Source: Escherichia coli
GTDB taxonomy: Bacteria > Pseudomonadota > Gammaproteobacteria > Enterobacterales > Enterobacteriaceae
Direction: 5' to 3' (one strand)
DNA: 64,000 nt
Assembly (NCBI RefSeq): GCF_003334815.1
Contig: NZ_QOWO01000023.1
The notes under the pieces are model-generated. The model saw nothing but the letters and a program-made list of their open reading frames with translations. It was not told the origin of the DNA and made no database searches. Made by a program: the position numbers and the translations under genes. Positions within the stretch are counted from its first letter, which is position 1; the number at the start of each line of letters is the position of its first letter. Positions 20,001 through 22,305 of this stretch are shown here, piece by piece.

Positions 20001-20393
20001 TTACCCCAGTAACGGTACTTTTGTGGTGGCGAGTTTAATGATGATGTACAGCACCACCAACGCCAGCGGGAAGGCAATAATGCGCGCCTGCTGACTGTGC
20101 ATACGACGATAATCGAGTGCAATAAAACCCAAAACGATATAAATGATAACTCCAAACAGCTTTTCAGTCAGCCACTGTGCCTGCCCGGAAAATGGCAGGA
20201 TGTGCGCTTTAGCCATCAACGCAATGCCGCTTAACAGTAACAGCGTATCGACAACCGGCGGCACAATGCGCGTCCAGCGAGCAAATGCCTGTGGATGCTT
20301 CTGATAACGTAGCCAGAAACGTAAGGTTAATAGCCCAACAGAAAGCGCGATACTAATAAGATGAACACTAAGCAGTGTAGAAAAACTTGTCAT
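20001..20393 (-). CDS. sirB2: SirB2 family inner-membrane protein
   Basis: 130-aa hydrophobic ORF; 4-nt overlap with prmC. Confidence 0.9.
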   Translation of the reverse strand: MTSFSTLLSVHLISIALSVGLLTLRFWLRYQKHPQAFARWTRIVPPVVDTLLLLSGIALMAKAHILPFSGQAQWLTEKLFGVIIYIVLGFIALDYRRMHSQQARIIAFPLALVVLYIIIKLATTKVPLLG

Positions 20394-21223
20394 TGATAAT
20401 AGCGGCCGAGCGTTACGCGCTCGTTATCACCATAGTCACGGCAGGTTTCGACGTCATGATACCCCGCGAGGATAAATGCTTGTCGCACCGCTTCGCCCTG
20501 CTGCCAGCCATGTTCCAGAAGCAGAAAGCCGCCGGATACCAGCGCGTTACGCGACTGTTCGATGATATGCACGATGTCTGCCATTCCACTGTCTGCCGCA
20601 ACCAGCGCAGTGAGCGGCTCAAAGCGGACATCGCCTTGTTGAAGATGAGGGTCCTGCTCGTCAATATACGGCGGATTGCTGACAATCATCGCAAACTGCT
20701 GCCCGGCTAGCGCGCTAAACCAGTCGCTTTGCAGAATGTGGATATTTTTGATCGCCAGATGCTGGGCATTACGTTGTGCCAGGGAGACAGCATCAGGCAT
20801 ACGATCTACAGCGATAATTTCGCAGTCCGGGCGCTCGCTAGCCAGCGCAAGCGCAATCGCCCCGGTACCCGTCCCGAGATCGAGAATACGGCAAGGTTGT
20901 TCAGGCAACCGCGCCAGTGCCTGCTCCACCAGACACTCCGTATCCGGGCGCGGAATTAAGGTCGCTGGCGAAACAAATAACGGCAACGACCAGAATTCTC
21001 GCACCCCGGTTAAATGAGCAATGGGTTCACCATCGCGACGACGTGTCAGTAGCGCATCAAGTTGCTGACATTGTTCGTCAGTCAGCTGCGTTTCACCAAA
21101 GGCGAGAATAAAAGTACGCCCTCTGCCGGTAACATGCTCCAGCAGGATTTCAGCATCACGCCGCGGGCTTTCGCTCGCCTGAAGTTGGCTTATTGCTTCA
21201 CGTAACCAGTGTTGATATTCCAT
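20390..21223 (-). CDS. prmC: Release factor glutamine N5-methyltransferase
   Basis: 277-aa ORF with SAM-binding motif (LDLGTGTGAIALALA) and NPPY catalytic motif; start ATG overlaps the prfA stop (TAATG). Confidence 0.95.
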   Translation of the reverse strand: MEYQHWLREAISQLQASESPRRDAEILLEHVTGRGRTFILAFGETQLTDEQCQQLDALLTRRRDGEPIAHLTGVREFWSLPLFVSPATLIPRPDTECLVEQALARLPEQPCRILDLGTGTGAIALALASERPDCEIIAVDRMPDAVSLAQRNAQHLAIKNIHILQSDWFSALAGQQFAMIVSNPPYIDEQDPHLQQGDVRFEPLTALVAADSGMADIVHIIEQSRNALVSGGFLLLEHGWQQGEAVRQAFILAGYHDVETCRDYGDNERVTLGRYYQ

Positions 21224-22305
21224 TATTCCTGCTCGGACAACGCCGCCAGTTGGTCGGCCTGATGTTCCTGGATAATCGGTTCAATCAGCATATCCAGCTT
21301 ACCTTCCATCACTTCATCCAGGCGGTAGAGCGTCAGGTTGATGCGGTGATCGGTAACGCGCCCCTGCGGGAAGTTGTAAGTACGGTTACGGTCGCTGCGA
21401 TCGCCACTCCCCAGCAGGTTACGACGGGTAGACGCTTCGGCCTGTTGGCGTTTTGCCATTTCAGCAGCGTGGATGCGAGCACCGAGAACAGAAAGTGCTT
21501 TAGCTTTGTTTTTATGTTGTGAACGTTCGTCCTGACATTCAACAACAATCCCGGTCGGCAAGTGAGTAATACGAATTGCCGAATCGGTGGTGTTAACGTG
21601 CTGACCACCCGCCCCTGACGAGCGGAAAGTATCAATGCGTAAATCTGCTGGGTTGATGTCCGGCAGTTCTGCGTCAGGCAGTTCTGGCATTACCGCAACG
21701 GTACAAGCAGAAGTATGAATACGACCCTGCGATTCCGTAGCAGGAACACGTTGCACGCGATGACCGCCGGATTCAAATTTCAGACGACCATACACACCAT
21801 CACCGCTAATTTTGGCGATGATCTCTTTATAACCACCATGTTCACCCTCGCTGGCGCTCATGATTTCTACCCGCCAGCGGCGGGCTTCGGCATAACGGCT
21901 GTACATACGGAACAGATCGCCCGCGAACAGCGCCGCTTCGTCGCCGCCGGTTCCGGCTCGGACTTCGAGGAAGGCGTTACGTTCGTCATCAGGATCTTTT
22001 GGCAGTAACAGAACCTGTAATTGCTGTTCCAGTTGCTCGCTTTTTTCTTTAGCTTCGCGCAGTTCATCCTGCGCCATCTCACGCATTTCAGGATCATCGA
22101 GCATCATCTGTGCGGTTTCGATATCTTCCTGAACCTGTTGCCAGTCGGTAAAACAGCGCGAAACATCACTTAACTGCGCATATTCGCGTGATAATGCGCG
22201 AAAACGTTCCTGGTCGGCGATAGTTTGCGCGTCACCCAGCAACGCCTGAACTTCTTCATGGCGTTCATGCAGGGCTTCCAGTTTGGCAACGATAGAAGGC
22301 TTCAT
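21223..22305 (-). CDS. prfA: Peptide chain release factor 1
   Basis: 360-aa ORF with GGQ motif ([14 protein letters not shown]) and PAT-equivalent region; recognised as RF1. Confidence 0.95.

Follow-up and report, generated by a model that had tools for sequence, protein, structure and literature searches.

Gene organization and stop-start overlaps

The window (the complete stretch of 64,000 nucleotides that was analyzed) is K-12-like E. coli chromosomal DNA in reverse orientation, and all genes considered here are on its minus strand. Gene calls agree between the open reading frames, the RefSeq annotation of a strain that is 100% identical over positions 18000-24500, and the annotation of MG1655. 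The gene hemA (22347..23603), which is the first gene of the hemA-prfA-prmC operon, ends with a TAG stop codon (22347-22349), from which 41 nt separate the ATG of prfA. The prfA gene (21223..22305; RefSeq WP_000804726.1; MG1655 b1211) codes for peptide chain release factor 1 (RF1), a protein of 360 aa with a GGQ motif. The next gene, prmC (also called hemK; 20390..21223), codes for the release-factor glutamine-N5 methyltransferase (277 aa), which has an NPPY motif. The translation of RF1 contains SGAGGQHVN, that of PrmC contains VSNPPYI, and the names given by RefSeq in the identical strain match these motifs. Further downstream are sirB2 (ychQ; 20001..20393), which codes for a membrane protein of 130 aa, then, after a spacer of 3 nt, sirB1 (ychA; 19188-19997) and, 35 nt after sirB1, kdsA (18298-19152). 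The narGHJI operon codes for the alpha subunit of nitrate reductase A (narG, 3710..7453), the beta subunit (narH, 2175..3713), the molybdenum-cofactor assembly chaperone (narJ, 1468..2178) and the gamma subunit, a membrane cytochrome b (narI, 791..1468).

Five junctions in these operons had been described in an earlier note as overlapping. All five overlaps are exact in sequence, open reading frames and RefSeq annotation, and in each of them the stop and start codons of two genes on the same strand overlap by 1 or 4 nt. In the reading direction, prfA and prmC meet in a TAATG (GAGCAGGAATAATGGAA, 21221..21225). The prfA stop codon TAA (21223-21225, read from 21225 to 21223) and the prmC start codon ATG (21223-21221) have the A at 21223 in common, so that the overlap is 1 nt. 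The genes prmC and sirB2 overlap by 4 nt in an ATGA (TATCAATGACAAG, 20390..20393). The same 4-nt ATGA layout is found at narG/narH (GTAAAATGAAAATT, 3710..3713) and at narH/narJ (CATCCATGATCGAA, 2175..2178), and narJ/narI is again a 1-nt TAATG overlap (GCACTAATGCAA, 1466..1470) with position 1468 as the common base. The span given in the note, 20390-22305, is bounded exactly by the prmC stop and the prfA start.

The prfA/prmC junction

The prmC start codon is predicted to have little ribosome-binding capacity of its own. A Shine-Dalgarno (SD)-like AGGA is embedded in the last prfA codons (CAG GAA; 21227..21230, minus strand), 3 nt before the prmC ATG. It is weak, the anti-SD duplex being calculated at -4.9 kcal/mol for this 3-nt spacing, and an AGGA-like motif precedes prmC in only 25 of 40 Enterobacterales loci.

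The overlap is kept in all 40 of these loci (24 with TAATG, 12 with TGATG and 4 with ATGA). Of 5,406 E. coli records that match, 4,751 have an identical 41-nt segment across the junction, and it is also identical to that of K-12 strain C600. In Vibrionaceae, the two genes are usually spaced by 3 or 4 nt (+3/+4), and the spacing is at most 12 nt in most Vibrionaceae and in many other Gammaproteobacteria. In most Pasteurellaceae, prmC is found about 500 nt or more from prfA, or elsewhere. A strict overlap is thus dispensable. Across 979 species, the PrfA-HemK distance has a median of -0.1, with quartiles of -4 (q1) and 15 (q3) (Huber et al. 2023, PMC10666635). Conservation of the overlap can partly reflect the constraint on each codon separately and need not mean that coupling is selected, because a simple indel cannot part the stop from the start.

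Two features that came up in this comparison were set aside. In the 40 loci, the prfA stop codon is UAA or UGA but never UAG, which was considered as a hint of autoregulation. It is a geometric effect, since TAG cannot overlap an ATG start by 1 nt. One locus from a genome labelled E. coli codes for a PrmC that is 92% identical and was considered as an unusual allele. It belongs to a divergent Escherichia lineage: across the whole 6-kb locus, 503 of 6,080 aligned positions (about 8%) are not the same as in the window.

Translational coupling of this gene pair has been studied by experiment. Saito et al. 2020 (PMC7538156) count prfA-prmC among the pairs for which coupling was "directly demonstrated", citing Heurgué-Hamard 2002. 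They confirmed it with a reporter in which the final 120 nt of prfA are followed by the initial 120 nt of prmC, with nLuc fused to the latter. Expression of nLuc increased when a ribosome-binding site was provided for the upstream ORF. The E. coli prfA-hemK(prmC) pair of Heurgué-Hamard et al. 2002 and of Saito, Green & Buskirk 2020 is the same locus with the same UAAUG, without difference. The proposal that translation of the GGQ methyltransferase is tied to RF1 translation through the overlap is supported by published experiments (PMC7538156), not by the sequence alone. The overlap has also been taken in the literature to imply coupling (PMC9301678). The dependence is one-way, of prmC on prfA and not of prfA on prmC. 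Coupling had been called tight, which is correct for the geometry but not for the strength. The ratios for the five pairs tested in the reporter study ranged from 1.7 to 7.0 (PMC7538156), so that some initiation independent of the upstream gene remains, and the coupling measured is partial (at most 7-fold across these five pairs). Coupling is established for prfA-prmC, and for the other four junctions it is suggested by the overlap.

Operon structure and internal promoters

The genes hemA-prfA-prmC are treated as a single operon (PMC7530605; PMC3001078). If prmC and the genes downstream of it were expressed mainly from internal promoters, the geometry of the junctions would be irrelevant. We consider this extremely unlikely. 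The operon is known to be regulated only at a hemA promoter (PMC7530605), and when an arabinose promoter was put upstream of hemA, the whole operon became conditional (PMC3001078). Independent internal promoters had been named in the earlier note as evidence that would speak against coupling; none was detected at the junctions by a simple sigma-70 scan, which is not a rigorous exclusion. Neither a sigma-70-like promoter nor a convincing terminator was found at the junctions, the simple consensus scan being weak evidence, and there is no room for a terminator between the genes because they overlap. Within 18000-24000, there are three sigma-70-like matches, fewer than the 5.6 expected from shuffled sequences, and none of them is near the prfA/prmC or prmC/sirB2 junction. 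What can be said for internal promoters is that one of the matches (20171-20143, coding strand) falls within sirB2, and that a growth-phase-regulated promoter of its own has been reported for kdsA.

The prmC/sirB2 junction

The sirB2 ATG is not preceded by an SD-like sequence, the best anti-SD duplex having only -1.7 kcal/mol. Because no SD is detectable, sirB2 is unlikely to initiate efficiently alone. The 4-nt overlap is not conserved even inside the Enterobacterales. Of 40 loci, 14 lack sirB2, and only 6 of the other 26 have this overlap. An experiment on coupling of prmC/sirB2 was not found in the literature. The prmC stop codon is a TGA (20390-20392) with C as the next base, and UGA-C is a weak stop context.

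The narGHJI junctions

Three genes of this operon have strong, well-spaced SD sites of their own (7-8 nt, by anti-SD duplex calculation). The site of narH, CAGGAGA, is strong (spacing 7 nt, -7.4 kcal/mol), that of narJ is CGGAGC (-5.8 kcal/mol), and that of narI, CGGAGGA, is strong (spacing 8 nt, -9.5 kcal/mol). Independent initiation is thus possible for all three genes.

Among eight nar-type operons from alpha-, beta- and gammaproteobacteria, including the paralogous narZYWV, the narG/narH overlap of -4 is kept in seven. The geometry elsewhere varies at narH/narJ (-4, -1, +1 and +17) and at narJ/narI (-4, -1, +7, +11 and +25). The E. coli operon narZYWV (nitrate reductase Z) is similar to narGHJI in that all three junctions overlap and narZ/narY has -4, as has narG/narH. 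It differs at narY/narW (-1, compared to -4 at narH/narJ) and at narW/narV (-4, compared to -1 at narJ/narI). A literature search for coupling within narGHJI returned only papers on other organisms and no direct experiment.

These data bear on the view that the overlaps are largely neutral, having arisen by genome compaction or a mutational ratchet, with independent use of ribosome-binding sites. It would apply mainly to narH, narJ, narI and sirB2. The strong and optimally spaced SD sites in the nar operon are consistent with it, as are the drift of the H/J and J/I geometries between -4, -1 and values as high as +25 nt, from one taxon to another and between the E. coli paralogs, the poor conservation of the prmC/sirB2 overlap and the frequent absence of sirB2, and the fact that such layouts are extremely common. 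We consider it doubtful. Coupling of prfA-prmC has been measured (PMC7538156), sirB2 lacks a detectable SD, narG/narH stays at -4 in all but one of the operons compared, and E. coli gene pairs that code for heteromeric complexes are 4.5-fold enriched in short overlaps (PMC10666635).

Frequency of short overlaps

In prokaryotes, no junction layouts are more frequent than overlaps of 4 nt and of 1 nt. In E. coli, 707 of 2,987 unidirectional gene pairs are within -8 to +6 nt, with -4 being the most common distance, followed by -1 (PMC10666635). Of the 32 co-directional neighbor pairs in the region of MG1655 that matches the window, 8 overlap. The overlap is 1 nt in four of them, 4 nt in three and 8 nt in one, and they add lolB/ispE, umuD/umuC and narX/narL to the five pairs under consideration. 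The -4/-1 layout is strongly non-random genome-wide, yet it is not special to prfA, prmC, sirB2 or the nar genes. The five overlaps are already known: the E. coli table of Huber et al. 2023 lists prfA/prmC with -1, prmC/ychQ with -4, narG/H with -4, narH/J with -4 and narJ/I with -1 (PMC10666635). They are ordinary stop-start overlaps in two well-known operons, and all five share the canonical ATGA or TAATG of the -4/-1 overlap coupling described in that study (PMC10666635). The narG/narH pair fits the reported enrichment of heteromeric complexes, whereas prfA/prmC, prmC/ychQ, narH/narJ and narJ/narI are marked as "not complex" (PMC10666635). RF1 and PrmC are substrate and enzyme and are not stable partners.

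Mechanism of coupling

We consider it highly probable that these are ordinary overlaps in the hemA-prfA-prmC(-sirB2-sirB1-kdsA) and narGHJI operons, that initiation at prmC depends largely on prfA, and that the nar overlaps add to the SD sites which these genes have themselves. Ribosomes that complete the synthesis of RF1 at the UAA would sit directly on the prmC AUG (UAAUG). Initiation at prmC would then depend substantially on ribosomes that are delivered by translation of prfA, because its own AGGA is weak and badly spaced. This may proceed by termination-reinitiation or by local initiation that is promoted by the terminating ribosome. In this way, the methyltransferase would be made from the same mRNA as RF1, at a lower rate and tracking RF1 synthesis. 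In the nar operon, the overlap most likely supplements independent initiation and contributes to the balance of the NarG and NarH subunits.

RNA structure was considered as the main mechanism at prfA/prmC and was rejected, the single folds being unremarkable and the consensus nearly empty. In single-sequence folds, no stable structure is predicted at prfA/prmC (z = -0.23), nor at prmC/sirB2 (z = +0.70), narG/narH (z = -0.63) or narJ/narI (z = +0.50). For narH/narJ, a moderately stable hairpin is predicted (z = -1.64), and the AUG of narJ is base-paired in it. An alignment of 25 enterobacterial prfA/prmC junctions yields essentially no conserved structure (consensus of -1.19 kcal/mol with 4 pairs), and an Rfam search of the whole window returned no RNA family within 18000-24000. 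The lack of a stable or conserved structure at prfA/prmC favors delivery of ribosomes over the unmasking of a structured site.

Whether the delivered ribosome itself reinitiates is a matter of conflicting published data. In the experiments of Huber et al. 2023, coupling by termination-reinitiation needs an overlap or a very short distance (PMC10666635). Saito et al. 2020 found that depletion of the ribosome recycling factor (RRF) left coupling unchanged at prfA-prmC and at overlapping pairs genome-wide, and they argued that reinitiation has no major part in coupling in E. coli (PMC7538156). This result is at odds with Huber et al., who interpret coupling as termination-reinitiation.

The alternative is facilitated de novo initiation. 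The terminating or elongating ribosome on the upstream gene would melt local mRNA structure or concentrate subunits so that a fresh 30S subunit initiates at the downstream start, and the overlap would only bring the upstream ribosome close. The insensitivity to RRF depletion of both prfA-prmC coupling and the ribosome-density ratios of overlapping pairs argues for it (PMC7538156), and ribosomes pausing at upstream stop codons may unwind the downstream initiation region (Baggett et al. 2017, PMC5373646). The predicted narJ hairpin also speaks for it. The other four junctions, however, have no stable fold, the enterobacterial prfA/prmC junctions have no conserved one, and a spacing of about 20 nt nearly abolishes coupling (Huber et al. 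2023, PMC10666635), which is hard to explain by unwinding alone. Facilitated initiation is a possible route, but we regard it as somewhat unlikely. For prfA/prmC, published experiments show that expression of the prmC reporter increases with translation of the prfA segment, and the molecular route, be it reinitiation or facilitated de novo initiation, is an inference.

Related systems and biological significance

The classic coupled pairs trpB-trpA, galT-galK, rplK-rplA and rpmI-rplT represent the same phenomenon as prfA-prmC and were studied with the same reporter design (PMC7538156). The ribosomal protein pairs use structured mRNA and translational repressors, and no such structure is predicted at the junctions in the window.

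It is tempting to speculate that the prfA/prmC overlap is maintained for proximity rather than for the expression ratio. PrmC would be made from the mRNA of RF1 just after RF1 has been released, and thus beside its fresh substrate, which would favor prompt methylation of the GGQ motif. In a weaker variant, the UGA-C stop of prmC, which depends on RF2 and overlaps the sirB2 start, could make expression of sirB2-sirB1 sensitive to RF2 activity or methylation. We consider both to be very improbable. If true, the proximity reading would carry co-translational assembly, as a rationale for overlapping genes, over to an enzyme and its substrate.

The finding confirms a textbook operon organization and matters little beyond this. 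The prfA-prmC junction serves as a standard case in tests of translational coupling, and it bears on the question of whether E. coli genes are coupled by reinitiation or by facilitated fresh initiation. In genome recoding and deletion of prfA, loss of the upstream gene or a change of its stop codon can disturb the expression of the overlapped downstream gene.

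Stop-start overlaps at the five junctions

The junctions were read directly from the minus strand of the window, and all five overlaps described in the earlier note proved correct. The region that it named, 20390-22305, is bounded exactly by the stop of prmC and the start of prfA. prfA and prmC overlap by 1 nt (...GAG CAG GAA TAATG GAA...), and prmC and sirB2 by 4 nt (...TAT CAATGA CAA...). Overlaps of 4 nt are also found at narG/narH (...GTA AAATGA AAA...) and narH/narJ (...CAT CCATGA TCG...), and one of 1 nt at narJ/narI (...GCA CTAATG CAA...).

Gene positions follow the RefSeq annotation of a strain identical over 18000-24500 and that of MG1655, which is collinear with the window at ~1.223-1.287 Mb in reversed orientation. 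All of the following genes are on the minus strand: hemA (22347-23603), prfA (21223-22305), prmC (20390-21223), sirB2/ychQ (20001-20393), sirB1/ychA (19188-19997), kdsA (18298-19152), narG (3710-7453), narH (2175-3713), narJ (1468-2178) and narI (791-1468). The expected motifs are present in the translations (GGQ in RF1, NPPY in PrmC). When 6.5 kb around the finding was used as a query, 5,423 of 5,426 complete genomes matched at 95% identity or more and several E. coli chromosomes at 100%; the 41-nt prfA/prmC and prmC/sirB2 junctions are identical in 4,751 and 5,164 E. coli records, respectively.

Strain differences occur elsewhere in the window. The tyrT/tyrV region (1-620) is unlike that of MG1655, with a repeat-number difference near the tyrTV tRNA genes; Rfam matches are to tRNA (51-132 and 345-426) and RtT (179-310 and 476-607). 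The window lacks 356 nt that are present in MG1655 after the second tRNA-Tyr, taken to be two RtT repeat units of ~178 bp, and its start looks like the 3' end of another tRNA-Tyr copy followed by a tyrV-type spacer, which suggests that repeat and tRNA copy number differ in this strain. Three tandem Rfam matches to rdlD-type antitoxin RNA with 535-nt spacing (16859-16924, 17394-17459 and 17929-17994) are the counterpart of the K-12 ldrABC/rdlABC type I toxin-antitoxin repeats; in strain 300709, IS150 is inserted between two of these copies. The ycgV autotransporter ORF (31365-34232) is intact (955 aa), as in MG1655; in strain 300709, otherwise identical over 18000-24500, an internal stop interrupts it and the annotation gives a pseudogene. 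An Rfam match to the small RNA C0299 (111.9 bits; 56610-56688, minus strand) is located upstream of umuD, adjoining hlyE.

Frequency of such overlaps

Stop-start overlaps such as these are not at all unusual. The MG1655 gene table for the region matching the window has 32 neighbour pairs in the same direction, 8 of them overlapping. Pairs absent from the earlier note are lolB/ispE (24440, plus strand, -1), umuD/umuC (56131, minus strand, -1) and narX/narL (11488-11495, plus strand, -8), where negative distances denote overlap in nt. Junctions of -4 are the most frequent in E. coli, those of -1 come second and those of -8 third, with the same order over 1,695 species, and 707 of 2,987 unidirectional pairs lie within -8 to +6 nt (Huber et al. 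2023, PMC10666635); the figure in Baggett et al. 2017 is about 15% of adjacent pairs overall (PMC5373646). The whole finding is already in the literature, even the individual junction distances; the supplementary E. coli table of Huber et al. holds precisely these pairs with the same distances. PMC9301678 also states the prfA/prmC overlap and what it implies.

Initiation signals and translational coupling

The prmC start is preceded only by a weak Shine-Dalgarno-like AGGA from the last prfA codons (anti-SD duplex -4.9 kcal/mol), 3 nt from the AUG and thus closer than the spacing of about 6-8 nt before the nar genes. For sirB2, no site was detectable by anti-SD duplex energy (-1.7 kcal/mol). 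Strong sites at 7-8 nt precede narH (-7.4), narJ (-5.8) and narI (-9.5 kcal/mol), and therefore the nar genes could initiate independently. The 120-nt folds around all five junctions were no more stable than shuffled controls (z-scores: prfA/prmC -0.23, prmC/sirB2 +0.70, narG/narH -0.63, narH/narJ -1.64, narJ/narI +0.50); only at narH/narJ is a modest hairpin predicted over the AUG, that of narJ. Folded as a consensus, 25 enterobacterial prfA/prmC junctions had essentially no structure (-1.19 kcal/mol, four pairs), and a simple scan found no promoter or terminator site at the junctions. With weak or undetectable ribosome-binding sites and unremarkable folds, prmC and sirB2 seem to rely on ribosomes that come from the gene upstream, there being no structure to unmask.

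The coupling proposed in the earlier note is backed by published experiments for prfA-prmC; for the other four junctions we only infer it. Saito et al. 2020 list prfA-prmC among the pairs with directly demonstrated coupling, citing Heurgué-Hamard 2002, and tested it again with a reporter in which the junction is flanked by the final 120 nt of prfA and the initial 120 nt of prmC. Translation of the upstream ORF increased downstream expression in all five pairs tested (ratios 1.7 to 7.0), and coupling was unchanged upon depletion of ribosome recycling factor (PMC7538156). On this depletion result rests the reading of Saito et al. that a fresh subunit may be helped onto the prmC start; according to the reading of Huber et al., the same ribosome may reinitiate there. 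The structure predictions weigh against the unmasking of a folded site at prfA/prmC, without settling the route. The evidence best supports prfA/prmC as a genuine, partially coupled pair, already characterised, with PrmC synthesis driven largely by ribosomes that finish RF1.

hemA-prfA-prmC is regarded as one operon, and its sole known regulation is the growth-rate-dependent hemA promoter (PMC7530605; PMC3001078). The hemA stop is UAG, which is RF1-specific (22347-22349, minus strand), and 41 nt separate it from the start of prfA downstream; the two genes are in different frames, the first bases of this stop and of the prfA ATG being 44 nt apart. RF1 feedback was once proposed on account of this UAG (Elliott 1989), and no evidence for it is reported (PMC7530605).

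Conservation across Gammaproteobacteria

An RF1 scan with one genome per species yielded 80 gammaproteobacterial loci, in each of which the RF1 stop and the PrmC start were placed by tblastn. prfA and prmC overlap in all 40 loci from Enterobacterales, including Orbaceae (24 TAATG, 12 TGATG, 4 ATGA), so that the overlap is retained despite changes of stop codon and geometry. An SD-like motif precedes prmC in only 25 of these 40, being set by synonymous CAG/CAA at the penultimate glutamine. In Vibrionaceae, 10 of 16 loci have +3 or +4 nt and three have -1; in most of the seven Pasteurellaceae, prmC either lies downstream at a distance of some 500 nt or more or was not found within the flank. Among the 17 other loci, prmC is downstream in 15 (-11 to +864 nt, 8 within 12 nt), and the flanks of the remaining two contain no prmC. 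The prfA/prmC comparison is in line with the published PrfA-HemK distance (median -0.1, quartiles -4 and +15, 979 species; PMC10666635).

The order hemA-prfA-prmC-(sirB2)-sirB1-kdsA is widely retained across the 80 loci, with repeated absence of sirB2. PrmC evolves much faster than RF1 (55-92% versus 80-100% identity to the E. coli protein in Enterobacterales). sirB2 is absent from 14 of the 40 Enterobacterales loci, and of the 26 that have it, only 6 show a prmC/sirB2 distance of -4. Since sirB2 lacks an SD, coupling of this pair is plausible, but its arrangement is labile in evolution. prmC ends in UGA with a C after it (20387-20393, minus strand), a weak termination context. Termination there requires RF2, which is also a PrmC substrate, and read-through would add about 20 codons. 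No evidence for a function was found, and the prmC/sirB2 junction is not conserved among the Enterobacterales loci compared.

The narGHJI junctions

Annotated junctions were compared in eight operons (distances in nt, in the order G/H, H/J, J/I). E. coli narGHJI and the Klebsiella operon have -4, -4, -1; E. coli narZYWV has -4, -1, -4, Pantoea -4, -1, -1, Burkholderia -4, -4, +25, Pontibrevibacter -4, +1, +11, Ralstonia -4, +17, +7 and Moraxella +298, +1, -4. The junction between the alpha and beta subunit genes is thus strongly conserved (-4 in 7 of 8), and those of the chaperone and gamma subunit show short-range drift. This pattern matches the published medians for NarG-NarH and NarH-NarJ and the enrichment of short overlaps that is reported for genes encoding heteromeric complexes (PMC10666635). 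A literature search found no direct coupling experiment on E. coli narGHJI. We infer that the nar overlaps probably help to balance subunit synthesis, in addition to independent initiation.

A genome without prfA

One genome (NZ_CP025268.1, labelled MG1655, USA: Boston) lacks prfA; positions 2440-2560 of its locus, L085, correspond to approximately 21215-22360 of the window. There, prmC directly follows the prfA 5' leader (...ACAGGGTG GAGGAGGAATAATGG), a C-to-G change in the wild-type GAGCAGGAA yields a stronger Shine-Dalgarno site, and hemA ends in TAA, not TAG. The genome looks like that of a laboratory strain that was recoded and deleted for RF1, its prmC ribosome-binding site having been strengthened by design or adaptation. 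The strengthened site would be consistent with a loss of coupling that requires compensation.
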